A DNA stretch of 55,186 nt, filler included, from Jimgerdemannia flammicorona (GCA_003990765.1; 3 parts of 3 records of this genome joined end to end with filler, not necessarily neighbours in it), one strand, 5' to 3'; shown: positions 5,015 to 53,100, counted from the first letter of the whole stretch. Notes: generated by a model from the sequence alone, not told the origin. Program-made: numbers and translations.

Positions 5015-5100
5015 ACTTCCCCCTGGCGTGGTTCTCCCCCGGTGTCCCCGTCCCTTCTCGGATTCCGTCGTCGCTTCTGGTGTGCCCTGAGTAGTTCCTC

Positions 5101-7525: not shown

Positions 7526-7527
7526 TG

Positions 7528-8514: not shown

Positions 8515-9010
8515 AAAACATCCTTGCCCCCTCTGGGGTCTCGCGCTCGCTCCGGGGTCTCAGCCTTACTCCGCTCCCCTCCGCTGCCTTCGGCCCCTCG
8601 CTTCACTCAGGCTTGCTGCAGCTCGCTCCATTTCGGCCTCACCCCTCACTCATGCTCACCCCTCCAGGGTCTGCGGATGTTTTTTAATCTCGATTTGGAT
8701 TTGTTTTATTTGTGTTTGTTTGTGATTTTTATCCTGCAACTGGGATTGGCTCCCCCTTTATCTCCGCCTATCTCCGGCAGTCATGTGGTTCCTAATTCGG
8801 TTCGCCCCAAGTTGTGGCGTGTCCTCCCGTTTGGGACGTCGTATTTTGTATATAAGGACCACGTTTTTACATGGCAATAAACGGCTGATGCATTTTCGGT
8901 TACGTTCTTTGTTCGTCCCCCTTATACATGCTCTTCCACATATCTTCCGTTCGCTTTGACACTGGCTCTGGGTTCGCTCCCTTGGCTCCTGCTGGGCCTT
9001 CTTCCTCCTC
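8509..9010 (+). repeat. pLTR copy 3 (502 bp)
   Basis: Direct repeat of 3366-3867. Confidence 0.92.
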
Positions 9011-18233: not shown

Positions 18234-18431
18234 CTGTTGGCATTACGACAGAATAAGTAAATAAAAACATGGAAACCAAAATCGTCACTTCACAATCCAG
18301 CAATGGACATTCGTGCATCCATCTCAAAAAANNNNNNNNNNNNNNNNNNNNNNNNNNNNNNNNNNNNNNNNNNNNTTAATTAATTAANNNNNNNNNNNNN
18401 NNNNNNNNNNNNNNNNNNNNNNNNNNNNNNN

Positions 18432-19022
18432 CATCTGCCATGCTGAATTCAGTCCACGAAGGAGGTGTTGGAAACAATCACGCTGTTCTGCGTCAACGTA
18501 CCCGTCTTGTCCCTTCACTGATCCCAAAGTTTCGACCGTTGTCAGCGACTTGCATATACCCTTCTTGTTCTTCATCGCGTTCGCAATTATTGTTAGTGCG
18601 AGGTACCTGCCACTGGACGGCCCTCAGGGACGCCACAATGACCGTGATCATGTTCACAAGATTCGCTGGCACGACGAGGTCGGGGCATTCACAGTTCACC
18701 CATGAACCACATCCAATCACGAAGATGGCGCCTGTCGATATGGCAGCGATGACGATAATGATGATGAGTCGCATGATTTCATGCTTTAATGTCATCATCC
18801 CCGTGTGCTTAACTGAAGAAATATTGATGATTCTCCCAAATAACGTGTTGTCTCCCGTCTGCAGCACCATCCCTTCGTCAGACCCGGACACTGTATATGT
18901 GCCATCAGGGATACATTCTGCGTCTCTAGAAAGTTGTTGTCCATTGCATCCACGGAGCCCTGAATTGCATCCGACTCGCCCGTCAGCGTTGCTTGATCGA
19001 AATGAAGGTTATTTAAAGCCAT
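18432..19022 (-). pseudogene. Frameshifted P-type (type II-like) cation ATPase fragment
   Basis: LTGES, TGDNTLFGRI, VPEG, VETLGSV and DKTGTLTQN motifs occur in the correct order but in different frames. Runs into the gap. Confidence 0.85.
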
Positions 19023-29700: not shown

Positions 29701-32700
29701 AAAGACAATGACCCTTGGAATATAGAAGAAGGATCCAGCACAATCACCATTATCTCTAAGAAAGCAACCTACCAAGAAAAGGCTTTTTGGCTAGAAAGAT
29801 GTCTACACCAAATGGTCTTTCACTCTCCCCAAGACTATTGTTATCAGTGCCATCTATAGACCAACAGGAGAGATAGAGACCAGAACCCCCAAACACAGTT
29901 GCACAGTTAACTATCTTCCAAGAAGTTACTACCAAGTTGCAAAGCCAATTTAGAGAATAAGGTCTCTTCATCCAGACAGAAGTATACCCCTTATCTACTC
30001 TTCCACCAACTTATACAAGATGGGTACTAATTCCCAAAACAACATAAGATCAATAACTGAGAACATCATTTCTGAGTAATGAGATATTGCGACCATGGAA
30101 GACACCCAGATTGCTGAGACTGCAGGCATCAGAAGATCTATCACAGTCATGATATTGCAATCCACACTTTAAAGAGAGGAGATAACCAAAGCCAGATCCA
30201 AAAAAGCCAGACCAAAAAGCCAGAAAGAAGGATCTTTAAGATCTATAATTTAGGAGAAGACATCCTAGCTTTCATCAGACATGCAACCTGCCAAGGATAG
30301 ATAGAGGATGTCACCAACTTCATGGAAGCCCTAGACTCTACAGGAAGAAGAGGAATCAACTATCTCCAAGACCCCTCTACTGGAGCCAGATGGCCACACC
30401 TCAATCTCAGAGCTTGGAGGTACTCTGCTAGTGGAGCATCAGCCTGAGAACAGGCCAAACTTAGCAAGGATATTACCCAGTATACCCTGCTACATCCCAA
30501 GGCCAAACCCCGACCAAAGCACACCCAGAAGATATAGGATATGATCTTCACAGTCTGGAGGATAAATCTATTAAGCCTGGAAAAACATTCATAATTTGAA
30601 CTGAACTAGCCATGCAACCACCCCAAGGAGCTTTTATCCAAATGACCTCAAAGTCTGGACTTGCCAGACAAGGAATAACCATAGAAAGAGGAACCATTGA
30701 CCCAGGTTATATAGGTGAAAACAAGGTCATCCTACACAACAGCAGTACAGAATGATACCAAATTATTAGAAGACAGAAGATTGCCCAAGCAGTCTTTATG
30801 AAGGTCAAGACTCTGTAATTACAAGAAATTGACTGAAGGAATAAGATAAGCCAAAGGATTTGGAAGTTCAGACAAGAAGGAAGTATATCTCCTTTAAGTC
30901 AACTACTTCAAAAGGAATGTTCCTTAGCAAGTATACTGCCAACCAGTCAAACTACACAAGAATCTCATTCTGGAGCCTGGAGAACAAACCACCTTTGAAA
31001 TCTTTACACTGCCCGACCCTAGAAACCTTTTCTTTGAACCCAATGAAGATATCCCATACCTGGATATAGAAGGACACACATTCCCTGACAAGATGAATCC
31101 AGTACACTCCTGAGCAATCAACCAAAGTTAGGAAACCATCATCTTGCCAAAAGGAACCATCATAGGGCATCTGGTGCCTTTTCTCAACCGAACTCATAGA
31201 GAAGTTTATGAACTAAACTTATCAGGAAATGGCAAAAGGTCCCAGAAGAAAGGAAAGGCCCCTCTGCGAACCAGGAGACAGTGAAGCCTTCCACCAACAT
31301 TGGAGAAGAATTGACACCTCAACAATAGCAACAACTAGTAGAACTTCTCAACAAATATCAAGATATCTTCACCACCAACTATGGCAACCTGCTATACAAC
31401 CCATCATATCACCACAGCATAAATACAGGAAATGCAACACCTATCTGGCATAAATCCTACAGAATACCCCATCACCTAAAAACATTTGAAAAGGAGCACA
31501 TTCTAGAACTCTTAGATAATGGAGTCATCCGACCCTCTAGCAGCCCTTGGGCCAGTCCTATGCTTATTATACCAAAGAAAGGAGGATAGAGACTCTGTGT
31601 AGATTACAGAAAACTCAATTCAGTCACTGAAAAGGATGCCTATCCTTTGCCCAGAATCAATACCTTTTGGATTAGCTACAAGATGTCAGATACTCAGCAG
31701 TATGGTCCTTTTCACAGGATTCCATGAGATCCCCATGGACCCTAAAGACATTCAAAAAACAGCTTTCCTTGCTTTAGGAAAACTGTTTGAATACCTCCAA
31801 ATGACTTTTGGACTTTGCAATACACCCCACATTTCAGAGGATAATGAATTCAGTCTATGCCCCTTTGATCCACTACTGTCTGATTTTATACATGGATGCT
31901 TCCAACATCTATTCAGTAAATTTCAAAGAACACCTGCACTACCTAGAGGAATTCTTCAAGCTCACTCACAAGAACTACCTGAGACTCAATACAAAGAAAT
32001 GCTACTTTGGAAAACAGAAACTTAAATTTCTTGAATTTATAGTTTCAAAGAAAGGAACTCATGCAGACCCAAAGAAAACCAAGAAGATCAACAACTGGCC
32101 AGTACCCAAGATCCCAAAGGAAATACTATCATTCCTGATGCTAGTATCCTACTACAGAAGGTTTATTAAGGACTTTGCCCAAATTGCTACCCTAATCTGG
32201 ATCCTTCTCAAGAAAGGAGTACCATTCAAATGAACAGAATTACAAGAACTGTCTTCAAAGAACTCAAGAACTACATAACTACAGCATCAATCCTTATGTA
32301 ATCCAATCTACAGAAGCCATTCATCTTATATATAGATGCTTCCAAAGATGGCCTAAGAGTAGTTCTAGCCTAAGAAGAACCTGACCAACAATACTATGTG
32401 ATAGCTTATACAAGCTAAGCTACCAATTAGTAGCAGATGATCTATAATAGCACCAAATTAGAATGCCTTATAGTCATATAGGGTGTCACCCTGTTCAAGC
32501 ATTATCTTATCAGAAAAAGGTTCACCCTGATCACAGACCATATAGCCCTCAAATAGCTATTCAACTGCAAGAAACCTACCAGAATCCTAGCCTGCTTGAT
32601 CCTTATCCTTCAGAATTACAAGATCACCATTATCTATAAAGCAGGGAAAGCTCACAACAATATTGATGTACTTTCCTACCAGCTCCAATGAATCAGAAAA

Positions 32701-33086: not shown

Positions 33087-33925
33087 CATCTCTTTTCAGT
33101 ACCATTCAGATTACACAACCTTTGGAAGGTGCTTTCGACATCATTTTCAGCAAAAAGAGACTAACAACATGGCAACTGACAGACAACCTGAGGTGCATAC
33201 TGGGCAGGGCGGCCCTAGCGCTTTCGACTGGCAGCAGGTGGGGAGGGGGCCAGGCCTGGGGGGAGGTATGAGGGGCCTGCTGGTGGGTGGATGTAGAAGG
33301 GGTGGAGGAAGTGGTGGTGGATCGGGATCTGGGAGGGCGAGCTTCACGGAGATGGTAAAGGGGAGACAGCAGACATCGGGGCTGGAGGGCTGGCTGAAGA
33401 AGGGCAAGGAGACTGAGAAGGCGAGGGTGCCGGGGGGTGTGGCCCTTGGAAGGGGGGGTGGTGGAGCTGCAGGAGTAGTGGCTGGGAGGGGTGTGACTGC
33501 TGATGGTGTTGGGACTGTCAATCTGGAAAAAAATCCAGATGTGACGGCTGATGGCGAGGCTGAGCGGCTGAGGCTTAGAAGACAAGGAGACTTGGCAGAT
33601 GGTGTAACGGGTCTGGTGGTGGCCCCATTACTCAAGAAATCGATTTCGGCATTCACGGTCACACTATGCTTCCAGGGCCTGGCGGTGACAGCAAAAATGG
33701 TGCTGGGGCTCATCACTAAGCAGGTGGCAGGTGCAGCATCTGTGAAGTTTTTGAAGGGACTGGAAGGAGTGGAGGTGGGTTTTGAGGAGGCGGCACCACT
33801 GGAGGAGGTGCTGAAGATTGGATTAGTGGTTGGGGAGGTATGTGTTCTGATGGCACAGTGCCTGAAGTGGGATTCCAGGGTGGTCCAACTGCTGGTAAAG
33901 GGAGTGCCGACAGTGACAGCAATGG

Positions 33926-35990
33926 TGTAAGTGCACAACCTCCAAGCCACTGAAATTACATATCACCCTCTGAACAAGCCACTGAAATCACATGCGACCT
34001 CCGAACAAATCTGGAAATCACCTGCTTGATCATGAAGCTGAGTCAAACCGAAGTCACAGTGTACAAAGCTGAGTCAATATGAAGTCACAGAACACAAGAT
34101 TTACACAAACGGAATCTTACCAATCAGGACCAAATGCATATATACCAAGCACTGAGATGCGTCGAATCAGAGAACCAAAACAAACAACAACAACCACAAC
34201 TTCCAATATACACAAACATGACCACCGAGATCTACAACTGCGTCCGCGCTGACATTTGGAATGCCATTGTCAACCAAGCAACACCCCCTCTGCCCCTTAT
34301 GAATATCCATAGCCTAGCACCCCTCTACTTCGTGGAAGCCTGATGGAATGCCCTGAACAAGCTTAATGAGGCCCACTGAATCGGACAAATCTCAAGCTAC
34401 TACCAGATCGGCTGCCTCTTGGAAGACATGGTCGAATACCACCATGATACAGATATTACCCAGATGTCCCAACACTAGAAGCTCATCACCCACAAACACC
34501 GAGAACTCTTCTATGAGTATAGCACCTTTATTCCCTGCCTCCGAGTCACTACCAGCGAAATGGTTGCCACTCTGTCCTACGGCCAAATTGATGACATGAT
34601 ACAAGAACTCAATCACAAGTACCTCGAGTACATTGAAACTACAGACAGAACCTTCCTGCACCCCGACGATCACATCCTGCAAATGCCCCAAGTTGGATAT
34701 GCCATGAAGGACATCTACGATATAATCCACTTTGACAAAGATAAAGAAGAAGACAATGATCCCTCTGATGCAGACATGACCTCAAGCCAAGGATCCCTGC
34801 CAACCCTGATCACACTGCCAACCTTGCCAATGAACTTACAACAGTTCATAACTGTATATGAGACTTATTGGGACAATGACCACTGGCATGAATACTAACC
34901 CACGTTCACCCCCGATTACTTCAATTATAATGAAGAGACTGGAGAACACAATCTGTACCTCCAGACAACCCTCGAGATTGAACCAACAACTCCACCACCC
35001 GAGTATGAATGATAGGAACCACAGCCGCCAACTTACTACAACCCCGCGACTCATAGTGCTGTAACCTATAGAAGGTATACAGACAGCGAATGCAATGAAA
35101 GCGAAGACAATACACCCATCCTTCGCCCACCAACACCTTATCCAGCATACGAAACAGACAATGCTATCCTGTGGGATGGAGATGAAGTTCCAATGTATTA
35201 TTACCTCACCGAACAAGGAGAAGTAATCCGTGAACCACTTTTCCTAGATGACTACTTCATCAGAGATGATGCAATTGATGGTGACATCATCGAAGACTAC
35301 CCAGACAGCACCTAAACCTATAAATGGCCTAGCAGTCATAGTATAGTTAGATTAGTCTTGTACGACGTGACTGTGAACTGACTCAGCAGTCAGGCAATCT
35401 CTTGACATGTCAGATTACATTTGTACTACGTGACTGCATTCCGACTCAGCAAGGCACTTAGTGCTACATCCATTTTTAGCATAGCCCAGATAGCCCCTCA
35501 CTAGTATAAATACCCCCTCTCCCAGACCTCAGAATCTCAGACTCAAACACACAAGAACATTCCTGAATACTTCCCCACAATACCCCTTCACACAACTACT
35601 CCTAGTATAGCAATATCATGAATAGCAAATAAACCTATTTCATAACCCACAAACCACTCTTAAGTAAATCCACTCTCCGTTAGGTCCTACTCCTAACCTC
35701 ATCATGAAATTTCCCAATTGGGTATTATCTGCAGCAATATGCCAATTCAACTAAACTGGTCTTAGTTTCTTGAACTTCCTGAAATACGGAAAATCCTGAA
35801 CATCTAGAACTAGTCCAAAAAAGGACTTTGGTTGAGACGTCAACCCGATCTTGAAATCAATAAGTATAGAGGATGTACTCCATATGAAATTGATCTTGAC
35901 CATAAGTAACGGTCTTCCAGAATATCCAGAACTTCCAGAAAACCCTTCCAGAACTATGTAACAGTTACCTTAAAAAGCAACCCTCTTACA
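33926..35990 (+). mobile_element. Solo LTR-A (2065 bp) with 5-bp TSD AATGG
   Basis: TGTAAG...CTTACA termini. AATGG at 33921-33925 and 35991-35995. TATAAATA at 35505 and AATAAA at 35628. Confidence 0.96.
34218..35315 (+). pseudogene. LTR-A U3-encoded ORF (365 codons, unknown protein with acidic/Pro-rich C-half)
   Basis: One frame from ATGACCACCGAG to ACCTAA with no frameshift. Several internal stops are sense codons in other LTR-A copies (e.g. TAG vs CAG, TAA vs CAA). Confidence 0.8.
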
Positions 35991-36413
35991 AATGGAGACA
36001 AGGAAGAGAGTTGAGGATTTCATGGCGGAATATGGCGAGGTGGTAGATATCGGGTTCAGGGTCTGGGAAGGGACCTCGCTCAGGACTGGTGACGTGGATG
36101 TGAGGATTTGGCTGGCTGGGAAGGAAGCCACTGGGAAGGCAAGGGATTGGCCTTCAGCGATGGTCTGGAGAGCGATCCTGTGTAAGGTGACAAGGGTGAA
36201 GGGGAGTGAGGAGGAGGAGGAGGATTTACTGGAAGCACTTGAAGAGCTGGGGGGTGCTGTGGAGAGGCGAGCAAAGGCTTGGGAGGCTTTTGAAGAGGCG
36301 ACACACTTGGAGGTGGTGGATGGGAAGCGGATTCGAGTGACCAAGGAGCAGTGGGAAAGGGCTCAGGGGTGTAAGAGGCAGAAGGAGTTGCTGGCCAAGC
36401 TGGATAGCGGACC

Positions 36414-36760
36414 TAGTGCTCCGAACAAGTCAATCCGGATGGGATTCGGATGGATTCGAATTGGATTCGAATCAGATTCGAATTGGATTCGAATCCCATC
36501 CGGATGGATTCGAATCGGATTCGAATCGGATTCGAATCGGATTCGAATCAACCATTGTTTTGATTTCCAAATTAGACAATTAAATGTTTACATCAATAAC
36601 TTGATGAATAATTATCCAAATTTGATGATCTTTGTGTCATTTGAAAGCCCTTAATAAGGCCTTTCTAATGATACCAAGAACATTAAAATCGGATTACGTG
36701 TTGCCGAGATATTAAGGAAAACGTTCCATTTGACGAAATTTCCAAAATCGGCAAATCAAA
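36414..36760. mobile_element. Left arm of a hAT-like MITE, running into the gap
   Basis: Starts TAGTGCTCCGAACAAGTCAAT, has a GGATTCGAATC array, and is an inverted homologue of ~50-326. Confidence 0.75.
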
Positions 36761-36869
36761 NNNNNNNNNNNNNNNNNNNNNNNNNNNNNNNNNNNNNNNN
36801 NNNNTTAATTAATTAANNNNNNNNNNNNNNNNNNNNNNNNNNNNNNNNNNNNNNNNNNNNAAAAAAAAA

Positions 36870-39800
36870 GAAGTGGAGAAGGCAGTAGTAGAGGACAGGG
36901 GTCTGGGAGAGCAAGCTTTGTAGAGATGATGAAGAGGAGATGGCAGGCATCTGGGCTAGAGGGATGGCTGAGGAAAAGCAAGGAGATAGAGAAGGTAGCA
37001 GTATATAGGGGAGTAGCTCTTAGCAGTGGGGATAGTGGAGCTGGGGGTATAGTGGCTAGAGTAAATATGACTGCTGATAGTATGGCTGAGTGGCTGGGGC
37101 TTGGAGGGCAGGGGGATTTGGCAGATGGTGTAACAGGCCTAACAGTAGCCCTGTTACTCAAAAAATTGATCTCAGCATTTATAGTTATACTGTGCTTCTG
37201 GGGCCTAGCAGTGACAGCAAAAATGGTACTGGGGCTTATCACTAAGCAGGTGGCTGGAGCAGTATTGGTAAAGTTTCTGAAGAGATTGAAGGGAGTGGAG
37301 GTGAGCTTTGAGGAGGCTGAGCCTTTGGAGGAGGTGCTAAAGGTTGGATTAACTGTTGGGGAGATATGTATCTCTATGGCATATTGCCTAAGATAGGATC
37401 TCAGGGTGATACAACTGCTGATAAAAGGAGTACCCACAGTGATGGCAGTGGAGATAAGAAGGAGAGTTGAGAAGGTTATAGCAGAGTATGGCAAGATAGC
37501 AGACATCAGATTTAGGGTCTGGGAAGGGACCTCACTCAGGACTGGGAATGTTGGTATATAGATTTAGCTGACAGAAAAGGAAGCTACCAGGAAGGCAAGG
37601 GACTGGTCTTCAGTAATGGTCTGGGAGGCAATCTTATATAAGGTGACAAGGGTGAAGGAGAGTGAAAAGGAGGAAGAGAACTTGTTGGAAGTGCTGGAAG
37701 AGCTGAGTGGTGCTGTAGAGCAACAGGTGAAGGCTTGGAAGACTTTTGTGGAGTTGACACACTTGGAGGTAGTGGATGGAAAGTGGATTCGAGTGGACAA
37801 GGAGCAGTGGGAAAGAGCTCAGAGATGTAAGAGATAGAAGGAGCTGCTGGCTAAGCTGGAAAATAAACCACAGAAGGATGCAGGTGGAGTGGTGGAGGCA
37901 AGGGGTGCCAAAGCAAGTATCTGGGCCAGTGAGAGTGGCAGGAGTGCAGAGAAGGAGACAGAAGAGGACAGAAAGATGACTGGCAATGACCTGTATGCTG
38001 ATGGTACATTTGAGGTCTGGGAGAAGGCCTGGGAGGAATTACCTACTCCTACTCCTCTTATTAGGTGAGGTCCAACTTCCCAAAGCAGGGTGGTAGAGGA
38101 TGTGCCAATGTGGGAGACCCAATATATGCAATTTGGAGTTCCTGAGATGGTGAATGGGGGACAAGTAGTGGTGGTTGGAGAGGAGGAACTGGTAGATATC
38201 CCAGAGGTATGGGATGAGTCTGCAAGTACCAGAGCTGACACCATGATGCTGGATAGAGAAAGACCAGTGACCCCTGGAGGGAAGAAGATGGGGAACCTAC
38301 TTTGGATATATAGGATGATGAATAATCTGGTGGCTGAAGAGTTGGAGGAGGTAGACTTGAGAGTAATGAGCAATAAGTATTGGGTACAGATCCTGTAGAG
38401 GGATGGAGTGATGTTGGCATTGAAGGCAGAAATCCTTACAGTATATCTGGAGGAGGAAGGATATGAGGTAGATAAGGAACAAGAGGCAGAGCTGACAGGT
38501 GTTGCTGGGGAGAGGGCTAAATACTGCTGGACCAAGTATCATAGATTGCAGCTCTGGCAGAAGGCCTATCTGAAGTACCAGGAGGAGTTTGAGGAGAAGG
38601 TAGATGGGGAGATAAATGAGCTGTTGGCTGGATTGGAGGCCCAGAGAGCTGAAGAGGAGGCATTGACTACAGAATATAATCTGGACATAGTGCAGGAAGA
38701 GATGAATATAGAGCAGTAGAGATGAACTAGATAATACACCATATTTCATTATGAATAGTATAACTAATATTTTCTCTTTAAACATGAATGGGTTATGGGG
38801 TGCTTCTCGATACAGAAACATTTTTACTTGGCTGAAGAGATTGGAGGCTGATCTCTTCCTCTTGTAGGATGTCAGGTGTGAGAATGACTTAGATAGGCTG
38901 GAATGGACAAAGAAATGGGGAGGTGAGGTAGTTTGGAAGGACAAGGTTGGAATTCTGGTCTGAAAAGGCAGAGGAGAGATATGGGATATAAGGAGCTGGG
39001 GGAATAGATTGGTCTAGAGAGAGTGGATACATATAGGTTGAGAGCCAGTCACAGTGGTCTCCTGTTACTGCTCTGCTATATGAAGTAAGTGTGTGGATTA
39101 GGTGAAGAGATTCCAGAAGAGTGGGGTCCTTGTAGAGACTGGGGTGGATGTGTTTGTGGAGACTTCAATATGGTCTAGAATATACTGATGGATAGAACAG
39201 ATGGAGAGCAGGGAGCTGAGAGTAGGAGTAGAGGGCTGGTGGTATAGGAGGAAGTGGAAAGGCTAAGTGCTCTGATAGATACTAGTAGGGAGTATTGGGA
39301 GGATAGGAGGGTATACATGCACTGGGCAGGGGGCCTGGAGATGAGGATTGGCTGGATATTGATGGCCAGCTACTGGGGCTTAGATGTTTGGAAGTTACTG
39401 GAGGTGGAATGGTGTCCTTGGTCAGATCATTGGGGGCTGTTGGAGCAGAGGCATTTTGGGGGGAGTGGGGATGGGCCTGGACATTGGTGCCTCAATTCCT
39501 CTTTATTAGATAATAGGATCTGGTGAGATGAGTGAGCTGAAGACATTCAACTGAAGGTGGAGAGCTAGAGGCAGAAAGGTGCTCCAGTTGGTGTTCAGTG
39601 GATGAGGATGAAGGAGATAGCCAGGGTCTACTGGAGTGAGGCTGGCAAGGAGGCTGGGAAGCAGAGGAGGTAATGGGTGAGATGGGTTTCTATTAGACTG
39701 ACTAGACTTTTGGAGGATTGAGCAGGGCTAGCAACATTGGAGGGGGGAGAGGATTGGAGATTAATGAGGGTGAAAATGGAGGTTGGAGAATTACAACAGA

Positions 39801-40495
39801 TGCTGCAGGAAGAGGAGGAGGCAAGGGTGCAGAGCTTGGTGGTACAGCTTCATTGGCAGGGTTTGGAGGAAGGGAAGAGGCCCTCTAAGTATCTCACAAG
39901 GGCCCTTCAGGTAAGAAGAGTACAGCAAAGGTGGGAGGGGGTGCTTGACTCTGATGGTATACTGGTTCATAGTATATAAGATATTTTTGAATCATTAAAG
40001 AAGCAATGGAGTGGATTGTGGAGTAAGAAGGAGGGTGGGGCAGATGCTGCTAATATTGACCAGATATTGGAAGACTGGCACCCTCTACAAGTGGATGGGC
40101 TGGGTGACTTGGTATTGCCAGTATAAGAGAAAGAGATCCATCAGATTCTTGCCACTACAATACTGGATACAGCATCTGGAGAGGATGGTCTGCCCTGGGA
40201 CTTCTGGAAAAGATGGTGGGAGTCCCAGGAGTACTGGATGAGATGATAGCATTGTGTGATTTTATACTACAGACAGGGAGATGGGTGGGGGAGCAGAATC
40301 TGGGGCTGGTGATATTGCTTTACAAGAACAAAGGAAGGTGAGAAGACTGGAAGAACTGGCAACTAATTATGCTGCTGGATATGGACAGAAAGTTAGTGAC
40401 TAAGGTAGTGGTCACAAGGCTACAGAAGGTGACCCAGCAAGTCTTGGGTGTTGAGCAGAGGGGCTTTATAGGAGGCTGGCTCATTAGAGATAGTA
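36870..40495 (+). mobile_element. L1/Tx1-like LINE copy B (decayed ORF1, APE endonuclease, start of RT)
   Basis: ORF1 is homologous to copies A and C. ORF2 has IFSLNMNG (38768), GDFN, SDH (39422), then GEDGLP and DWKNW..I.LL...EQRGF. Confidence 0.9.
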
Positions 40496-40499
40496 CAGT

Positions 40500-42948
40500 C
40501 TGTAAATGCTATTTAGAATATGCAATGTCTCAGCAAGTTTTTAGTGAATAATGAATAGAGTCTTCAGTAATGAGATTGGAAAATAGCTCTTTGTCTATGT
40601 TGATAATGTGATTATCTTCAGCAATACTATATGGAAATATGTCAACCATATACAGCTAGCTCTCAAGAAGCTCAAGGAGTATGACCTCTATATTAAGTCC
40701 AAGAAGTATAAGTTTGCAGCTCAAGAAATTGCCTACCTAGGACATATTATCAACCAGACTGGAATTTACATGGACTCCATGAAGATTGAGGCTATAGCAG
40801 CCTATCCAAGATCCAGAACAACTATAGAAGTTCATACCTTTCTTGGACTGGCCTCCTACTATAGAATATTTATCAAAGGATACTTTAACATTATAGTACC
40901 TATCTATGAGCTACTGAAGAAGGAGACCAAATTCAAATAAACTAAGAAGTATTAAGAAATCTTTAATAAACTCAAGACCAGATTGACTCAAAGCATCTAT
41001 TCTCAGAAGACCAGATTGGAACCTAGAGTTTATTCTGTAGACTGATACAAGTACTATAGAACTTAGAGCAGTCTTAGCTCAGAAGAAAGATAGACATGAA
41101 TATGTCATCTCCTATACAAGCTAAGAGCAGAACACAACTATGAGTCATATAAGCTAGAATGCTTAGCAGTAGTTTGGACAGTAGACAAGTTTCACTACTA
41201 TCTAGCCAGAAAATACTTCACTATTCAAACAGACCATTCTGCTCTTACCTGGCTATTCTACATACTGAATCTCAAAGAAATATATGTCAGATAGATCTAC
41301 AGACTATAAGAGTATGACTGTACTGTCAAGCACTACTCAGGAAGAACTAATGCCAATACTGATGTACTCTCAAGAATACTCTAAAATATCTCCATCAAGA
41401 CTATTTAACATGAATAAGGAGCTATACTATAGATTAATAAAAGATATCCAATCATATCAAACCCTGGACTATCACTATCATCAATCAGACTTGGAAATAA
41501 TTTGAACTAGACAATACTATACTTAGAAACAGAGAAAAGCTCATAATATCTAAATATAAGAAGTATCAAGTAATGAAGGAAGTATATAAACAAGGATATC
41601 TAGAAGAAACCAATACATATGACAAGGTAAGAAGAACTATATGGTGGCCCAAGATAGAAGAAGATCTGTACCAATTTGTCAAAGAGTGTGACAAGTACCA
41701 AAAACAGAAATAAGATCAGTAAGACCAGATACCCAGGTCATCAAGAATTGAGTCTATCTCCTTCTACCACATTGTAATAGATATCATTGGACTACTATCA
41801 ATAATACTATCAGAAAACTACTATATTATAATTATTGTAGACCTCTTTATCAAATAGATAGAAGTAGGAGTATTACAAGAAGTCAATGCTCTCTCTATAG
41901 TCAACTTCCTATACTGAGAAATCATCTGCCACTACAAGACACTAAGGCAAATCACCACAGACTGCAGCACAGAATTTGTCAATAGATTCCATGAGATAAT
42001 ATATCAGAAATATAAGATTCAGTATATCAAGACCACTGTATACTACTCTCAAGAAAATGGACAGATAGAAAGAACCAATAAGACTCTTAAGAATATCCTG
42101 GCAAAGATCTCAGACATATATGATAATTGAGATAACTACCTCCCAACTGCCCTCTCTGTCCTACAAGATATATAGTTACAGAGTACACACTTTACCTCAA
42201 GAGAACTGCTCTTCAGAGAAGAAGATTCTGATGAAACCTTGGTTATAAATCTAGACCTAACTTGGAGACAGATTGACTCAGAAATCTGAAGACTACACTA
42301 AATCAGAAAGAAGGCTGAGAATTATATTATCAAGTTATAAATACTGACAAGGAAGAGTAGAAAAGAATTACAAGACTCTAGAACTCATCCAAATCAGAGA
42401 AAAGATCCTACTATATTAAAATATGGTAGAAGCCTCATGGTTATGAAAACTAGAGCTCAAATGAGAAGAATCTTTCTATATATAAGATATCAAGAGAACT
42501 ACCTTCTGGCTTAGACAACTCTCAGTTACTATACTGTCTACTATGGTATATAGGAACAGACTGAAGTACTATAAACCTATATAAGAGAAATAAAACATGA
42601 TGACTGCTCATGAGGTTCTAGTTTGTGAATCATAACAGTATGTTCTATAACTAGCAGGTAATCTGTCTGGACTATTCTCTAAGAGATATGGTACCAACAA
42701 CTACTCATCCATAAGACTTTTGAAGCTAAAGGAGTTTGAACCATCAACTGATTAGTCAAAATCAAAATCAGGCCCTTGCTCTATATAAAGAGAGCAACTT
42801 TTCACCATTATACCAAAATATATAAGAAAGATGCTAGTCTATAAACACCACTTTTTGACCCCCTGCCAGAGGTTATGAGATCAGCAAATTTTTCAGACTA
42901 GACCAAAAATAAGAACATTCAAAAGAAGATCCTTATTCAGGAGGAAGA
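40500..42948 (+). mobile_element. Gypsy-C internal 3' part (RT C-half, RNase H, integrase without chromodomain, PPT), heavily decayed
   Basis: VYVDNVIIFS, FLGLASYYR, TDTS..ECLAVVW..TDHSAL, WWPKI..ECD, IDIIG, NGQIERTN. PPT AGGAGGAAGA at 42939-42948. Confidence 0.9.
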
Positions 42949-44403
42949 TGTAACAGTGACCTCAGAATGGTGATATCATCACAGAAGACAGCTTTTTCTT
43001 ACAAGTTACCAAATTGGAGCATAAGAAGATCATATAGCATAACTCACCCAAGCTACAAGATGAGTAATAATGACCAATCATGAGTCATCATGACTACAAG
43101 ACAGATATCTTGAGAAATATAAAAGAAGGATCAAGAAACCACAGTAGCAGTAACTCAAAAAGGCTCACATAAATAGTTCAAAAGACTTACTATAAATAAA
43201 ATATCAGCTGCCTGCCAAATCTTAAGGTCCAGGAACCACCAAGGCCCCTCAGTCCAGGAAAGAATATTCCAAGATATCAGAAGAGCTATGAGGATCTATA
43301 TAAGAAGAACTCCTAGCCTTAATCCTGGGTACTGGTGACCCTTATCATTATATTCTCTATTGCTATAAAATGGAAACAAAGATCACTATTGCTACTGAAT
43401 ACCTCTGGATATAGCAGGAGTATGAAATAGGAAACCTCCTCTACTAGGAATTCCCTCAGGCCAGTCCTCAAGAGATATAAGATACCACTCTCATAGATAT
43501 ATATAAAATAAGAACAGCTAAGAAAGTTCATCAGATCTTCAGGCATACACCATAGTCAATCTCCAACTTGGAGTATACTAGAATCTCAGACTTCAAGGAA
43601 CTGTTAGCCCACTATACCAATGTACTAGAGACCATAGTGACCACAGAAGCCTAGTCCACTATCACCCTCAATAGTGATGAGATAGAAGAGTTCTGGTATC
43701 TCATTCTCCAGAACAATCTAGATCAATTTCTATAAAGATTGATCTCAGCATTCCAAGGTTCCAGTATCTAAGTTAGATCTCTCCAAGACCCCACATTTGT
43801 TCCTTATTTTGAAGAAGAGAATGTCATAGATTGGAGTGCCCCCACTACTACTAAATATGATGACATCATCAGTAATGATGTCATTCTGCTAATTGGAGAT
43901 ATGTGTAAAGTATGCAAAATATATAATATATGCAAAACAGATGAGATATTCACAGATCTCATTTCCTTCAGTGGTGATGAAAATAAAGCCCCCATGGTCC
44001 TAAACATTCTGCTCTAAGTTCTTGATAATACTGAATTCTATCAGTATTCTTTTTTTATATAACTGTTATTCTTTTAGTATTCTGATCTTACATAACTCAG
44101 AAATTCTTCTAATATTCTTTTTCTGTACTACTGAAATCTACTGACATCCTGAACTTATATAATGTAACGGTGACCCCAGAATGATGACATCAGTACAGGA
44201 GACAGCCTTTCTTTACAAGCCACCAGATCAGAGTACAAGAAGATCATATGGCATGCGAGATGAGCAACGATGACCAACTGTGAGTCATTGTGACCACAGC
44301 ACAAGCATCCTGAAGAATATAAAAGAAGAATCAAGGAACTATAGTAGCAGCAGCCAACAAGAACCCCAATCCCAAAATAGCTCAAAGACTTACCACAAAC
44401 AAA

Positions 44404-45164
44404 ATGCCTGCTGCCTGCCAAACCTCAAGGTCAAGGAATCATCAAGGTATCTCGGTCGAGGAAAGGATGTTTCAAGACATCAGAAGAGCCATGGAGATCC
44501 GCTCAAGAAGGACTCCTAGTATCCACCTGGGTACTGCAGACCCCTATCACTTCATCCTCTACCGCCATGAAATGGAAACAAGGATCACCATCGCCACCAA
44601 ATGCCTCCAAATGTGGCAGGAGTACGAAATAGGAAACCTCCTCTGCTGGGAGTTCCCACAGGCCAGCACCCAAGAGCTACAAGATGCCACTCCCATGGAT
44701 ATATGTGAAACAAGGACAGCTAAGAAGATCCATCAGATCTTCAGGCATGCACCATGGTCGATTCCCAACCTGGAGTATGTTAGAGTCTCAGATTTCAGAG
44801 ACCTGTCATCTCGCCACATCAATGCACTAGAAGCCAGGGTGGCTACAGAAGCCCAGTCCACTATCACCCTCAACAGTGAAGAAGTAGAAGACTTCTGGCA
44901 CCCCATCCTTCAGGATAACCCAGACCAATTCCTGCAAGGATTGATCTCAGTATTCCAAGGCCCAAGCATCCGGGTTAGATCCCCCCAAGACCCCACATTT
45001 GTCCCCTATTTTGTGGAGGAGAACCTTATAGACTGGAGAGCTCCAGACCTTGTTCCCGATTTTCCCGCCACACCCGAACGTGATGATGTCATCGATGACG
45101 TCATCCCGCGCAACATCGAGGCACGCGAAAATGACGAAGTATTCGCGGACCTCATCTCCTTCAG

Positions 45165-45195
<31 letters not shown>

Positions 45196-45225
45196 GCTCC
45201 CATGATCCTGAACTTTCTGCTCTAA
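44404..45225 (+). CDS. Intact LTR-C U3-encoded ORF, 273 aa, unknown function, acidic C-terminus
   Basis: Open frame with TATAAAAG at 44318 upstream. A colinear decayed homologue lies in the older LTR. Ends in a poly-Asp tail. Confidence 0.8.
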
Positions 45226-45232
45226 AGTTCTT

Positions 45233-45400
45233 TGTTACACTGGATAATGCCAGCACCGGTATTCTCATGTAACACTGGATAATGCCAGCACTGGTATTCT
45301 TATGTAACACTGGATAATGCCAGCACCGGTATTCTGAGGTGATGCGAAATTGTTCCAGCACTGGTATTTTGATGTAGTACTAAATAATGCCAGCTCTGGA
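45233..45400 (+). repeat. 35-bp tandem repeats in U3 of LTR-C (enhancer-like)
   Basis: TGTAACACTGGATAATGCCAGCACCGGTATTCT at 45233, 45268 and 45303, plus two degenerate copies, upstream of the LTR TATA box. Confidence 0.85.
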
Positions 45401-46360
45401 ACTCAGTAGTTTTAGTTATTGGAATTTATATTTAGCTTTATATCTTAGCAACCATTGAATTATATTTTGTATAAATACCTCCCTTATTTCCTCTGAAATA
45501 AAGTCAGTCAAGTTCTGGTTTTATCTACACACACTTCCTTGCAAGCAATCTAAGAGATAACAAGACAGTTAAAGATAAGAATTTTGAGGACTATAAGACC
45601 TTGGGAAGGCACTCCAATAAGAACTTGCTTATAACAACTTGAGTTAGTCTAAGAGATATATCTTGAAGAGAATCTGGCATATTTGAAGAACTCAGCGACC
45701 ACTACGTGACAATAATTATTTGTACAGATACTTGAATTTGTACTTATAACTATAGTTTTCTGTGTTCTAGTATTTTATTCAGTTATGGACTTTATATTTA
45801 GCTTTATAACTTAACAACTATTGAATTATATTTTGTATAAATACCTCTCTTATTTCCTTTGAAATAAAGTCAGTCAAGTTCACTTATACTAATTCTATAC
45901 AAGCAATCTAAGAGATAACAAGACAGTTTAAAGATAAGAAGTTTGAGAACTATAAGACCTTAAAAATATACTCCAATAAGAACTTACTTATAACAAACTT
46001 GTGGTTAGTCTAAGAGATATATCTTGAAAGACTCAGCAACTACTATATAACACTATAGAGCCTTGATAAAAGATCATTATTTAGTAAATAATTTCTTATA
46101 TTCTTAACCAATTACTAGTATATTTAAATAGATTTTCTAACAAAGAGATAAATTGTGATTCTGGCAATAGATAGTTCTCTTATTGATATAAACTTTGGTT
46201 TTGAGATATTGACTAGTATTGATCACTCTCTCATCTATGACCTTGAGTTAGATCATTAAAAAGATATCTTATTTAAGCTTAGAAAGTACTTGAAAAGCTT
46301 CTCATAATTTAGTAAACTCTTCTTTAGAAACCTTGAATAAGTAACTATAACTATATCTTA

Positions 46361-46444: not shown

Positions 46445-49400
46445 TGTAACAATTTCACAGTTATATTTAGTCATAGTATATTTTTACATCTTTTAGTTAG
46501 TCTTTTCTTATCATTTCTTGAACATTCTACTATATTCTGCCACCTTCTACTTGCTTAGAAACCTTCTCTCAGTATCTAGACACTACTAGAATATTCTTAT
46601 CTTTCCTTGGCACTAAGCTTCTTATCTTAGCTAGTTATAGAACCTTTTGGAATTTCTCTTTCTTTCCAAGATCCTTCTAGATCTTTCTTTTAGATTATAT
46701 ATAAATATCCTTATTCTCTACTTGAATAAAGCTCAGAATATTTTCTTTCAGAAATCTTTCAAGAACATTTGAATCTTTAAGTATCTCTTTGAGCTACTTT
46801 AGATCAACCAGAACTTCCAGATTTAGCTACTTCCTCTTAAAGAAACTAGAACTATTATACTTAGTAGCAATAGTGTTGTTATATCTTGTCTTATTAAGAA
46901 ATCTTACATGAATTCAGAAACCAGTCACAACTAGTCACATGAATCCAAAATGAGTCACAAAGAGTCAGTCTATCAGCCAGACCTCTCTGGAGAAGCAGGA
47001 GAACTACAAGTCAATATAGAGAATATGATCAATACTATGGTCCACCAAATCTAAGAACTTCAAGTATATCACATTCTGCTATAGTACCAGTCAGTTTCAA
47101 GTCACTCAAGTCAGATATCTTTGATAGCTATTGAGGAGGACTATCTACAGATGCATGGACCTTCTAGTTGGACCAATACTTTGAGCTTACAAGAATGGAA
47201 GAAGACATATAAGTTCAATTTGCTGCCATACTCCTCTGAGAAAATACAGCCATCTGGTGATATAATCATATTATAGTTATATCTATATACTCATATACAT
47301 GAATCAGAGACTGGAAAGCTTTCAAGAGAGCTCTTCACAAGTAGTTTAAACCTGCTAATGCTATCAAGCTAGCCAGAGACAAGCTAACAAATATCAAGCA
47401 ACTCAAGTCTATGCAAAGCTATAATATACAATTTCTGTCAATCTTACTTAAGCTACCAGCAATATCTGAGGATGAAAAGATGGACTGCTATGTCCAAGGT
47501 CTGAAGGGAAATACACAAGTCAAGGTTGAGCTAGAAGAGCCCAAGAATCTTGATGAAGCCATGAGAATTACTAATAGGTTTGATGTTATTATCTTTGGCA
47601 ACTGCTTTGAACCAGAACACTATAAGAAGAACTACTTTGAGAACTATCACAGAAACCAACCAAGGACAGTTGGCCTGGTACCAATGGACTTAAATACTAT
47701 AAATAAAAAGAACACCAAGCTCACCTCTGAAGAAAAGGACTACCTGAAGAAATCTGGAGTCTGTTTCTTCTATTGCCAAACAGGATATATTATAATCAAA
47801 TATTCTAAGAAGACTAGTGAACCCTCAAGACTAGTCACCATATTGTCCAAAGACACACCCATTAACTCCACTACTAGTCAACTTAAGCTCAAGATCAAGA
47901 AGCTTCACCTAAAGGCCCAGGTCCCTCAATATCAAACAGAAGGAGTCATTGATCTTAATCTACACTCAGTCAAACAAGTCATTATTTCAGCAAAGGGCTG
48001 AACTCTGATGTCTACTGGAATTGCAGTCCAATGTCCTAAAGGACATTATGCTAGAATTATATCATGATTAGGACTCAGTATCAAATATTATTTAGATATA
48101 GGTACTGGTATCAATGATCCAGACTTTCAAGAACAAGTCTAAGTTCTACTTGTCAACCAGAAGGATCAAGACTATACAGTTAAAGAAGGAGACTAAGTCA
48201 CACAAATGATCCTGGAAAAAGCCAGTTAACTCAAGATTATAGAAGTCCAAGAACTCCCTGAAACCAAACTAGATCAAAAAGGTTTTGGTAGCACCAATCA
48301 AGCAGCAAGTCTTACTGAAAATTGAGCTCAAGCCATGCTAATTTTCAAAGACCTAGTCAAGAGAAAAGAAGTTCAAGTACTCATAGACAGTAGAGCTACA
48401 GAGAACTTTATCAACTAGAACCTCATTGAAAATTTCAAGATTCTTACTAAGTCTGTACCCAAGAACAACAGCATAGTTACTGCAGATGGTACTCTACACC
48501 CCATCAAGTCAATTGTCACCAAACTACCTATCAAGATCCAGAAATATTGGGAATGAGTAGACATTGAGATTACACTACTAGGAGATCATGACCTGATTCT
48601 AGGAAAACCCTGGCTTATGAAACATAACCCAGATATTAATTGGTGCTAGAATAAAGTCACCTTACTTCAAGATGGAGCCAATATCACTATCAAGACAGAC
48701 AAGACCACAAGCAAGATACAGATTGCAACACTGTCAGCCATATAGTATAAGAGAGTACTCAAGAAGGCAATGCAAGCTTTTATTATAATAGTCTGTTCCA
48801 AGAAACAAGACAAGAGACTATCAGTCAATAAAAGTATCAAGCTACTACTAGAAGAATTCAAGGATGTCTTTCCAGATAAGCTACCTGGTTTACCACCTAT
48901 ACAAGAAGTTGATTATAAAATTGAACTGACCCCAGGAGCTGTACCATCCAAGAAACACATATACTACATAAATTAAAGCAGTCAAGAAGGAACTAGAAGT
49001 ACTACTTATATGAGGAGCCATTCAGCCAATCAAATATCCTTATGGCTCACCAGTCTTATTCATCAAGAAGAAGGATGGTACCCTGCAAATGTGTATAGAC
49101 TACCATATACTCAATAAGCTTACTATCAAGAACCACTATCTGCTACCCTTAATTGATCAAATCTTTGATGCTCTTAAGAATGCCAAGTACTTCACCAAGT
49201 TGGATCTTATGTCAGGATACCACTAGATCCGAATCAAGTCAGAAGATATCTCCAAGACTGCATTTATGACCTCTTTGGACTTTACAAATTCCTGATCTTA
49301 GCATTTGGTCTCACCAATACACCTACTACATTCCAGACCCTGATGAATAAGATATTTAAGAACAAACTGTTTATTCTTCTGTTGATATATCTTGATGACA

Positions 49401-50156: not shown

Positions 50157-53100
50157 CATCTTTCTCTGATACCATTCAGGTTACACAACTTTGGAAAGTA
50201 CTTAAAACATTGTTTTTAGAGTAAAGAGACTAACAATATGGCGACTGATAGGCAATCTGATGTGTATACTGGGCAGGGTGGCTTAAGCACTTTCAAATGG
50301 CAGCAGGTGGGGAGAGGCCCAGGCCTAGGGGGGGGCATGAGAGGGCTGCTGAAAGGTGGACAGGGAAGGGGTGGAGGTAGTGGTGGAGGCCAAGAGTCTG
50401 GGAGAGCAAGCTTTGCAGAGACAGTGAAAGAGAGGCAGCAGGCATTAGAGCTGGAGGGCTGGCTGGAGAAGGGCAAGGAGACTGAGAAGGTGGCAGTACA
50501 TGGGGGAGTAGCCCTTGGAAGTGGGGGCAGTGGAGCTGAGAGAGTAGCAGCTGGGGGGAGTGTGACTGCTGATGGCAACAAGACTGCTAATCTGGAAAAA
50601 AATCCAGATACGATAGCTGATGGAGCAGCTGAGTGGCAGGGACTTGGAAGACAAGAGGATTTGGTGGATGGTATGATAGGCCTGGTGGTGGCCCCATTAC
50701 TCAAAAAATCAATCTCGATATATGTGGTTACACTGTACTTCTGGAGCTTAGTAGTGACAGTGAAAATGATGCTAGAGCTTATCACTAAGCAGGTGGTAGG
50801 AGCCATATCAGTGAAGTTTTTGAAGAGACTGGAGGGAGTGGAGGTGGGTTTTGAGGAGGCTGAGCCACTGGAGGAGGTACTGAAGGTTGGATTGATAGTT
50901 GGGGAGACATGTGTTCTGATGGCACATTGTCTGAAATGGGATCCCAGGGTTGTTCAACTACTGGTGAAAAGAGTGCCCATAGTGACGGCAGTAGAGATGA
51001 GAAGAAGAGTTGAGGAAGTTATAGTGGAATATGGAGAGGTGGTAGACATCAGGTTCAGGGTCTGAGAAGAGACCTCACTCAGAACTGGTGATGTGGATGT
51101 GAGAATTTGGCTAGCTGGGAAAGAAGCTACTGGGAAGGCGAGGGACTGGCCTTTGGTGATGGTCTGGAGAGCAATCTTGTGCAAGGTGACAAGGGTGAAG
51201 GGAAGTGAGGAGGAGGAAGAGGATTTATTGGAAGCACTAGAAGAGTTGAGTGGTGCTATGGAGTGGTGAGTGAAGGCTTAGAAGGCTTTTGTGGAGTCAA
51301 TGTACTTGGAGGTAGTGGATGGCAAGTGGATTCGAGTGGACAAGGAGTAGTGGGAAAGAGCTCAGGGGTGTAAGAGACAGAAGGATCTGCTGGCTAAGCT
51401 GGAGGGCAGACCACTGGAGGATGTGAGCAAGTTGAAGAGTATGGGGGGGGCCAAAGTGAGTATCTGGGCTAGTGAGGGGGGTGGGAATGCCAGAAAGGAG
51501 ACAGGGGAGGATAAGGAGGTAACTGGTAATAACCTGTATGCTGATGGTACATTTGAGGTCTGAGAGGAGAACTGGGAGGGCTCCCCTACCTCTACTCCTC
51601 TTATCAGGTGAGGCCCAGCTTTCCAAAACAGGGTGGTGGAGGATGTGCCAATGTGGGGGGCCCAGCAGGTGAAATTTTGAGTTCTGGAGATAGCAAATAG
51701 AGGACAAGTGGTGGCAGCCAGAGAGGAGGAACTGGTGGATGTCCCAGAGGTATGGGATGAGTCTGCAAGTACTGGGGCTGACACTACAATACTGGATAGA
51801 GGGAGGCTGGTGACTTCAAGAGGGAAGGAGGTGGGGAACCTACTTTGGATGTACCAGGTGATGAACAATCTAGCAGCAGAAGAGTTGGGGGAGGTGGACT
51901 TGAGAGTGATGGGTGATGAGTATTGGGTGTGGATACTGTAGGGAGATGGAGTGATGAGGGCATTGAAGGCAGAAATTCTTGCAGTGTATCTGGAGGAGGA
52001 AGGGTATGAGATAGATAAGGAGTGAGAGGCAGAGCTGGCAATTGTTGCTGGGGAGAGGGCTGAATACTGCTGGAACAAGTATCATGGATTACAGCTCTGG
52101 CAGGAGATCTGCCTAAAGTACCAAGAGGAGTTTGAGGAGAAGGCAGATAGGGAGATGAATGAACTGTTGGCTGGATTAGAGGCTCAGAGGGTTGAAGAGA
52201 AGGAGGTGACTGCAGAACATAATCTGGATATGGTACAGGAGGAGGTGAATATGGAGCAGTAGGAATTGATTAATAATATAATGTATTTCATTATGAACAG
52301 TACAACCAACATTTTTTCTTTGAATGTGAATGGATTACAGGGCACTACTAGATGTAGGAATATTTTTACTTAGCTGAAGAGATTGGAGGCTGATCTCTTC
52401 CTCTTGTAGGATGTCAGGTATGAGAATGACTCTGATAGGATGGAATGAACAAAGGAATGGAGAGGTGTGGTGATTTGGAAGGGCAAGGTTAGGATTCTGG
52501 TTCAGAAAGGCAGAGGAGAGATAAGGAATATGAGGAGCTAGGGAGAGAGACTGGTCTGGGGTAAATGGATTTGTACAGGCTGGGAGCCAGTTATAGTTGA
52601 CTCCTGCTACTGCCCTGCTGTATAGAGTGAGTATATAGATTGGGTGAAGGGTCTCCTGGAGAGTGGGATCCTTGCAGAAGCTGGGGTAGATATACTTGGA
52701 GGAGATTTCAATATGGTTCAGGATATACTGATGGATAGAACAGATGGAAGATGGGATATTGAGAGCAAGAGTGGAGGGCTGGCAGTATGGGAGGCAGTAG
52801 AAAGACTAAGTGTACTGGTAGATACTGGTAGGGAGTGCTGGGGGAATAGGAGGGTTTATACTCATTGAACAGGGGGCCTGGGGACAAGGATCGACTGGAT
52901 TCTGATGGCCAGTTGCTGGGGCCTAGATGTTTGGAAGTCACTGGAGGTAGAATAGTGTCCATGGTCAGATCACTGGAGGCTTTTGGGATAGGAGCACTTT
53001 GGGGGGAGTGGGGATGGGCCTGGACATTAGTACCTAAATTCCTCTTTATTGGATGATAAGATCTGGTAGAATGTATGGGCTAAGAACATTCAGCTGAGGG

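Follow-up and report, generated by a model that had tools for sequence, protein, structure and literature searches.

Two types of long terminal repeat (LTR) in a 55,186-nucleotide stretch of DNA (filler included; here called the window) were each found to contain a predicted protein-coding gene. LTR-A and LTR-C are LTRs of two different Ty3/Gypsy lineages. On the evidence of its sequence, each carries a sense-strand gene that has been kept by purifying selection. The genes are designated ORF-A and ORF-C (ORF, open reading frame). The first ~105 to 125 residues of their predicted products are homologous, with ~23% identity. Beyond this part the two proteins are not recognizably related, either through divergence or because their origins differ. 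We favor, with a probability of roughly 60%, an account in which an LTR-borne, selected accessory gene with a related N-terminal domain in two Gypsy lineages would be expressed from an LTR-contained mRNA and would encode a regulator that acts through protein contacts.

LTRs are usually seen as noncoding control regions, and solo LTRs are seen as inert or purely regulatory remnants. A selected protein gene wholly within the LTR in two Gypsy lineages is unusual for such mobile elements. LTR annotation pipelines would miss such a gene family, and hypothetical proteins listed as "orphans" in fungal and soil metagenome data may be encoded in LTRs. These genes may give the elements a retrovirus-like accessory function (regulation or counter-silencing) that outlasts the element itself.

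LTRs of two Ty3/Gypsy lineages

The window contains four copies of LTR-A and the end of a chromovirus pol gene.

33926-35990, plus strand: solo LTR-A, TGTAAG...CTTACA, with the 5-bp target site duplication (TSD) AATGG at 33921-33925 and 35991-35995.
10256-12310, plus strand: second full solo LTR-A, TSD GCAAG; ORF-A frame at 10544-11641 with 11 stops.
2150-3043, plus strand: truncated 3' LTR-A with the N-terminal part of ORF-A from 2440; polypurine tract at 2136-2148, directly upstream.
325-1303, minus strand: truncated LTR-A; ORF-A frame at 327-1034 with 5 stops.
1304-1723, plus strand: chromovirus pol end with a Tf2-type SH3 domain and a chromodomain (Pfam E 8.6e-15 and 4.1e-15), directly upstream of the LTR-A copy at 2150.

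The two full copies (33926 and 10256) are 86.9% identical by self-BLAST and alignment. The 33926 copy was inserted into another repeat, repeat B, whose halves resume on either side. The original prediction, a model's reading of the window, had described LTR-A as a chromovirus LTR with a 5-bp TSD, and both points held. The assignment to a chromovirus was made because the copy at 2150 follows a polypurine tract and the SH3 domain and chromodomain (PF00385, E 4.1e-15, within the stretch 1304-2148).

LTR-C was found as one solo copy, which is inserted into an older relative.

44163-45711, plus strand: solo LTR-C, 1,549 bp, TGTAAC...GTGACA, with the 4-bp TSD ATAA at 44159-44162 and 45712-45715.
42949-44158 and 45716-46052, plus strand: older LTR-C-like 3' LTR, split by the solo LTR-C; polypurine tract at 42939-42948, upstream.
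40358-42948, plus strand: decayed Gypsy pol with reverse transcriptase (RT), RNase H, and integrase H2C2 and core domains, upstream of the older LTR.

The older LTR is 76 to 79% identical to LTR-C. The predicted length and 4-bp TSD were recovered. As had also been predicted, no chromodomain was detected upstream of the older LTR at a Pfam E value of ≤0.01, in a region that is heavily decayed. The C terminus of the LTR-A chromovirus gave no tblastn match to the LTR-C lineage.

Both families have TG...CA ends, TSDs, and a polypurine tract with pol domains upstream of a 3' LTR copy, as Gypsy LTRs do. They had been said to share no visible DNA similarity. None was found beyond the 11-nt TATA motif GTATAAATACC, which is where the best blastn match lies (E 1.4).

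The flanks of 42949-46052 could represent two adjacent insertions or a tandem array with one common LTR. The gag-dUTPase-protease-RT-RNase H region of another element lies ~1.2 kb past the older LTR. The internal regions on either side of the older LTR gave no blastn match to each other at an E value of ≤1e-10.

Contigs from four sequencing runs contained many fragmented, diverged copies, in which C>T, G>A, and T>C changes predominated. Contigs of two runs guessed to be RNA skipped 119 nt (45290-45410), inside a region of 35-bp repeats. This suggests copy-number variation of the repeat.

ORF-A and ORF-C as protein-coding genes

Both ORFs, and a decayed third copy, were placed as follows.

44404-45225, plus strand: ORF-C, intact, 273 amino acids (aa); helices predicted to ~residue 185, followed by an acidic tail with APMILNFLL at its end.
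34218-35315, plus strand: ORF-A remnant, a 365-codon frame without a frameshift and with 6 in-frame stops (TGA, TAG, and TAA, mostly CpG-type transitions).
43201-44017, plus strand: decayed ORF in the older LTR-C-like LTR, without its start codon and with 7 stops in 43325-44014 and a single frameshift near 43325.

The claim of an intact 273-aa ORF-C was borne out. ORF-A had been presented as a 365-codon ORF. The length of its frame stood, and it is free of frameshifts in both full LTR-A copies. It is not open, since those copies contain 6 and 11 stops, and it is broken in all four window copies. Codon 42 is TGA in two copies and CAA in two. Each is one CpG-type transition from CGA.

Intact relatives were found for both families. 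ORF-C has six among 498 candidates, 59 to 87% identical, one of which is full length (271 aa). A C-family profile search of 1.84 billion representatives returned 5 matches, including the divergent proteins P0014 to P0016. Divergent members are 200 to 342 aa long. Metagenome contig L001 contains an intact 323-aa C-family ORF followed by GTATAAATACC and AATAAA, as in the window LTRs. P0008 (1 of 588 candidates) is an intact 247-aa relative of ORF-A, corresponding to residues 115 to the end, with 64% identity. P0017 (1 of 6 candidates) is an intact 128-aa relative of the ORF-A N terminus, 88% identical to the 34218 copy. In metagenome contigs, 31 pattern matches to the ORF-A family were obtained and 0 were confirmed. 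Viral contigs gave 40 and 24 pattern matches to the two families, again with 0 confirmed.

The ratio of nonsynonymous to synonymous substitution rates (dN/dS, or omega) was calculated by the Nei-Gojobori method (NG86). The two off-frames of the identical alignments served as the control.

ORF-C versus L001: frame 1, 0.156; frame 2, 1.15; frame 3, 1.81.
ORF-C versus the older copy: frame 1, 0.235; frame 2, 0.91; frame 3, 1.32.
Two full LTR-A copies: frame 1, 0.169; frame 2, 0.81; frame 3, 1.44.

Omega had been proposed as a check with the original prediction, and it was well below 1 in all three comparisons. Both ORFs evolved as proteins, since omega is 0.16 to 0.24 in frame and 0.8 to 1.8 off frame. 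ORF-C and L001 are 63% identical in nucleotide sequence across the ORFs, and they differ most at the third codon position (0.52 differences per position, compared with 0.35 and 0.235). Saturation of dS (proportion of synonymous differences, pS, 0.68) counts against this one comparison and makes its omega only approximate.

The original prediction had placed the ORFs inside U3 of two different Gypsy families. Each ORF was found to be contained entirely in its LTR and to precede the conserved GTATAAATACC. This is the sole motif common to LTR-A, LTR-C, and L001. Both ORFs probably lie in U3, because they precede this motif, the putative LTR TATA box. Since the gene sits inside the LTR, each new insertion receives it at both ends, and it is left behind in solo LTRs. 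The predicted persistence in solo LTRs was observed for both: the whole ORF is retained within TSD-bounded solo LTRs, and in the solo LTR-C copy the gene is still intact.

Homology of the N-terminal domains

Homology of the two proteins had been claimed from the window sequences. It was recovered for the N-terminal ~105 to 125 residues and not for the full length. The pair of window proteins is insignificant by itself, and the homology became significant because the intact relatives P0017 and L001 were brought in.

P0017 and the L001 ORF matched by BLASTP with 32.7 bits and an E value of 9e-7, with 24 of 104 positions identical (~23%) and 3 gap positions. Their Smith-Waterman score was 86. Shuffled sequences scored 30.3 ± 5.4 (maximum, 61), and 0 of 2,000 reached the observed score (z, ~10). 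The same pair gave 20.9 bits and an E value of 1.7e-8 at Z=1 in phmmer.

Profile hidden Markov models (HMMs) of each family were compared with three sets of shuffles (global, 15-residue window, and 8-residue window), with 20,000 in each set and 60,000 in each direction. The C-family HMM scored 19.4 bits against P0017. None of the 60,000 shuffles reached this score, and the maxima were 11.6 (global), 14.2 (15-residue), and 18.6 (8-residue) bits. The A-family HMM scored 14.0 bits against L001; the best of its 60,000 shuffles scored 12.0, and 0 reached the observed value. Reversed sequences scored ≤4.0 bits against the family HMMs. The profile comparison with shuffled controls that had been proposed was thus significant in each direction. 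When the whole window was scanned in six frames with the C-family HMM, the only match outside the family's own copies was to ORF-A. That match was the minus-strand copy at 325-1303, in the correct frame, with 8.9 bits.

The motif alignment first put forward was right in its register. Its register was reproduced by tblastn, hhalign, HMMER, and MAFFT, and BLASTP gave the identical one. The alignment requires a 3-residue gap, and for the window pair it is not above chance. Between the window LTRs, tblastn recovers the original blocks only at E values of 58 to 68. The present alignment adds two blocks on the N-terminal side, P-x-[LM]-N-[LI] and DI..A.

Several results weigh against the homology. 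For the window pair, the best BLASTP E value was 0.23, the Smith-Waterman score was 44 against shuffles of 37 ± 5.4 (P = 0.118), and hhalign with shallow profiles gave a P value of 0.12. P0017 matched the window ORF-C with a BLASTP E value of only 0.018. Deeper profiles improved the hhalign P value to 0.0034 to 0.01, with a probability of just 4 to 9.5%. In the hhalign controls, a score as high as that observed came from 0 of the 253 column shuffles and from 1 of the 252 local shuffles, and reversed alignments scored 16. No counterpart of the best-conserved stretch of the C family (residues 141-216) was found in ORF-A 127-245 (E 0.025 to 0.06, ~0 bits). The C-family profile retrieved no A-family protein at an E value of ≤0.001 from the 1.84-billion library. 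The best pairs were also chosen from ~6 x 13 sequences (~78 possible pairs), and E values need correction by up to ~80-fold. After an 80-fold correction, the BLASTP E value for P0017 and L001 is still near 1e-4. The N-terminal homology therefore points to one common LTR-borne accessory domain.

Two further likenesses were rejected. The C-terminal likeness of DPTFVPYFVEENLIDW and EPLFLDDYFIRDDAID was not significant (BLASTP E 0.24; best local Smith-Waterman P = 0.118). The MAFFT pairing of FQGP...PYF...IDW in the C family with QGSLP...QQFI...YWD in ORF-A was unsupported in the HMM test.

Expression and alternative explanations

The following candidate control motifs flank the two genes.

34136-34146, plus strand: TATA-like GCATATATACC, ~75 to 80 nt upstream of the ORF-A ATG; putative promoter.
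35504-35514, plus strand: TATA box GTATAAATACC, downstream of ORF-A.
35628-35633, plus strand: AATAAA, 3' of GTATAAATACC and ORF-A.
44316-44325, plus strand: TATA-like AATATAAAAG, 80 to 90 nt upstream of the ORF-C ATG; putative promoter.
45233-45407, plus strand: tandem repeats of 35 bp that separate the ORF-C stop from the TATA box, found as 4 overlapping 70-nt registers and read as ~5 units.
45469-45479 and 45497-45502, plus strand: GTATAAATACC and AATAAA, core-promoter and polyadenylation-type motifs downstream of ORF-C.

The 35-bp repeat may be an enhancer-type repeat. AATATAAAAG and much of the leader do not vary among the three C-family sequences (LTR-C, the older copy, and L001). The GCATATATACC site is TATA-rich in all four LTR-A copies, with a 4-nt insertion in one copy and variable flanking bases.

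In the favored account, the gene would be carried in the 3' U3 of genomic RNA. At the least it would be carried there, because every element RNA includes U3 at its 3' end. A short mRNA would also start at the conserved TATA-like element upstream of the ATG and end at the polyadenylation signal of the LTR itself. This mRNA is favored because AATATAAAAG and the leader are conserved and because GCATATATACC lies at a similar distance in LTR-A. That each LTR may be a self-contained gene expressed in this way is a tentative conclusion, held at somewhat less than even odds. A broader proposal is doubtful. It holds that every LTR, solo LTRs included, is a gene with an internal U3 promoter and the polyadenylation signal of the LTR, and that the protein belongs to an old family across fungal Ty3/Gypsy lineages that acts in trans to raise expression of its own element family or blunt host silencing. 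Its spread over lineages would be by descent or by LTR exchange. If this broader proposal is true, hundreds of solo LTRs per genome would form a distributed reservoir of a transposon-serving factor.

The same gene family could instead be expressed in a retroviral style, like MMTV sag or HIV nef. The protein would be translated only from element RNA that contains the 3' U3, whether spliced and subgenomic or full length. The ORFs would have no promoter of their own, and solo LTRs would be silent. Under the standard transcription scheme of LTR retroelements, U3 is present in every genomic RNA. A pyrimidine-rich tract ending in AG (ctttctttacaag, ~44205-44218) upstream of the ATG is kept in the older copy and could be a splice acceptor. 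Against this, AATATAAAAG and the leader are conserved between LTR-C and L001 despite the 63% nucleotide identity of the ORFs, which fits a promoter and 5' untranslated region. No splice donor or spliced form was seen, and the contigs of the four runs gave no usable information on starts, ends, or splicing. We consider this explanation rather unlikely, although it is a serious one.

It is improbable that the ORFs are passenger fragments of captured host genes, either one capture that spread or two captures of paralogous genes. The proteins belong to no known family, and the available text of one review documents gene capture by plant LTR retrotransposons (PMC7264820). However, no relative was found with a Pfam domain or outside an LTR-like context. 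The 10 C-family and 2 A-family database proteins have no assigned family, and no host paralog outside a transposon context was found among these 12. The longest listed contig of these relatives is ≤1.6 kb for 8 of the 12, and none is listed for P0013 to P0016. L001 shows the LTR layout, and the gene stayed under purifying selection during its time in the LTR. A host-gene origin, which had been named as a possible refutation of the original prediction, was thus not found among these relatives.

Another reading takes the upstream TATA-like element as the main promoter. The ORF would then lie in an R region of ~1.2 kb as the first cistron of genomic RNA. A TATA-like element does occur 80 to 90 nt upstream of the ATG in both families. 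However, it is GTATAAATACC, downstream of the ORF, that is conserved in LTR-A, LTR-C, and L001, and it leaves a typical 210 to 455 nt for R and U5. To our knowledge, an R region of >1 kb would be unusual. This reading is given little credence.

It is very improbable that the ORFs are unrelated and that their N-terminal likeness arose by chance or by convergence of two helical, acidic proteins. The low hhalign probability, the insignificant window pair, and the loss of similarity past residue ~130 fit such a view. It is opposed by the BLASTP and Smith-Waterman results between intact members, by the 0 of 60,000 shuffles in either direction (composition-keeping local shuffles included), by the reversed decoys, and by the single register from all methods. 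Finally, the ORFs are almost certainly not chance open frames in LTR DNA: although ORF-A is broken in every window copy and neither protein has a Pfam match or confident fold, omega is low only in frame, third positions change most, and intact ORFs persist at 59 to 87% protein identity.

Properties and putative function of the proteins

A conserved helical domain with an acidic tail had been proposed. Helices were predicted, in models of low confidence. The AlphaFold predicted local distance difference test (pLDDT) values were 41.7 for ORF-C and 30.7 for ORF-A. Both models place helices over the first ~140 to 185 residues and little beyond. By our own reading, the predicted helix positions of these low-confidence models correspond under the sequence alignment. 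Both tails are acidic, as claimed, and they do not align with each other. Net charges are -26 and -49 for the whole proteins and -20 and -26 for the tails, where the charge is concentrated most.

The weak models and the search results count against a firm structural assignment. The Protein Atlas model of P0008 has a pLDDT of 0.39. No Pfam relative was found, and a scan at an E value of ≤1 gave only scattered weak matches. PDB searches at an E value of ≤10 gave 0 matches for family C and 2 for family A (E 0.42). In the Protein Atlas, the best score for ORF-C was 0.87, below the lead level of 0.9. Its neighbors are labeled Basidiomycota, with very few members labeled. P0008 had no usable feature match there, and its structure rows had TM values of ≤0.30. 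The weak Pfam matches were treated as chance. They were ATG5_HBR in 4 of 12 members (best E 0.028), NpmA, DUF5338, KAR, and GrpE.

A possible role as a transactivator or anti-silencing factor had also been proposed. No enzymatic or DNA-binding feature is visible in either protein. The tails are acidic and hydrophobic, and Pfam and PDB searches found no DNA-binding domain. Direct DNA binding is not favored because the whole proteins are strongly acidic. The product would have an N-terminal part for which helices are predicted, followed by a long acidic tail, rich in Pro and Tyr and probably disordered. The product may act through protein contacts to regulate the element's own expression or host silencing. 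This proposal is speculative, and we think it less likely than the account of LTR-contained expression.

The acidic Pro/Tyr-rich tail of the 34218 copy contains the PPxY-type motifs PPEY and PPTY (~34950-35030). They are only partly kept in the other full copy and are not present in P0008. All three sequences share a PPTPYP[AI]Y block.

Comparison with known accessory genes

The nearest parallels in location are sag of mouse mammary tumor virus (MMTV) and, in part, human immunodeficiency virus (HIV) nef and the foamy-virus bel genes. MMTV sag is a sense ORF within U3, as ORF-A and ORF-C probably are, and is hence present in each LTR copy. MMTV is a vertebrate betaretrovirus, whereas ORF-A and ORF-C belong to Ty3/Gypsy elements of a probably fungal host. 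Sag is a type II membrane glycoprotein. ORF-A and ORF-C differ from it in being acidic, with no predicted membrane segment noted.

The foamy virus bel region (tas/bet) and HIV nef contain 3' accessory genes that overlap U3, which makes them a partial parallel. Foamy viruses have a second, internal promoter that drives accessory transcripts, and this may parallel the putative promoter before the LTR ORFs. The bel genes and nef start in the internal region, run into U3, and are not kept whole in solo LTRs. In contrast, ORF-A and ORF-C and their putative promoters lie entirely inside the LTR. No Sag, Nef, Tas, or Bet family appeared among the Pfam matches at an E value of ≤1, and Pfam and PDB searches gave no sequence relation to them.

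VANC, an accessory protein encoded by the Mutator-like VANDAL transposons of Arabidopsis, is an anti-silencing factor that evolves rapidly and acts in trans on copies of its own family. It would be a functional analogy only. It comes from a plant DNA transposon and has no sequence relation to ORF-A and ORF-C.

A full-text literature search, with most subscription journals outside its reach, found no gene described inside a Ty3/Gypsy LTR. In the available text of two papers, the additional ORFs (aORFs) of plant Ty3/Gypsy elements (Retand, Grande gene23, RIRE2, Ogre, and Retrosat2 ORF0) and brtn of Botrytis Boty are extra lineage-restricted ORFs of unknown function (PMC7264820, PMC3485330). The same text describes them as evolving faster than pol, with some under selection. 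Their location is internal, either after the 5' LTR and before gag or after pol and before the 3' LTR, and they are often antisense (PMC7264820, PMC3485330). ORF-A and ORF-C differ from the plant aORFs in being inside the LTR and on the sense strand. The available text of the aORF review contains neither "within the LTR" nor "inside the LTR" (PMC7264820). For Podospora crapaud, the accessible part of one paper reports variable U3 regions of <200 bp and mentions no ORF in them (PMC10787394).

Other features of the window

The window is a transposon-rich eukaryotic stretch. Its sole clear host gene is an EDC4/Ge1-like WD40 gene on the minus strand at ~15.1 to 18.2 kb. The CpG observed/expected ratio is 1.01 in this gene, compared with 0.00 to 0.50 in the studied LTRs. 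C>T and G>A predominate among the differences between repeat copies. The low LTR ratio and this excess point to methylated, decaying repeats.

Two decayed Gypsy elements contain dUTPase domains. The domains are at 30504-30842 and 47915-48295, both on the plus strand (Pfam E 2.2e-17 and 1.4e-20), and the elements span ~26.4 to 33.1 kb and 46.05 to 50.17 kb. In the 46- to 50-kb element, the dUTPase lies between gag and protease. In the 26.4- to 33.1-kb element, the Pfam scan detected neither gag nor protease.

Repeat B occurs at 33100-33921 with 35993-36413, at 36869-40358, and at 50170-53902 and beyond. Its copies are 70 to 85% identical. It has a G-over-C skew of 0.4 to 0.5 and no Pfam match. 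At 33100 and 50170 it adjoins truncated Gypsy pol. It is also bordered by two runs of 44 N each (36761-36804 and 36817-36860), and the assembly may be uncertain there.

The region 3045-9017 is GC-rich and contains long ORFs without a Pfam match. It consists of tandem units of ~1.5 kb, of which 6026-7528 and 7512-9013 are 93% identical. It also contains 336-bp inverted repeats, 3045-3380 being matched by 3532-3867, 7190-7525, and 8675-9010. A fragment at 18496-19008 on the minus strand weakly matches E1-E2 ATPase, below the Pfam cutoff (E 4.7e-5). It adjoins two N runs at 18332-18431.

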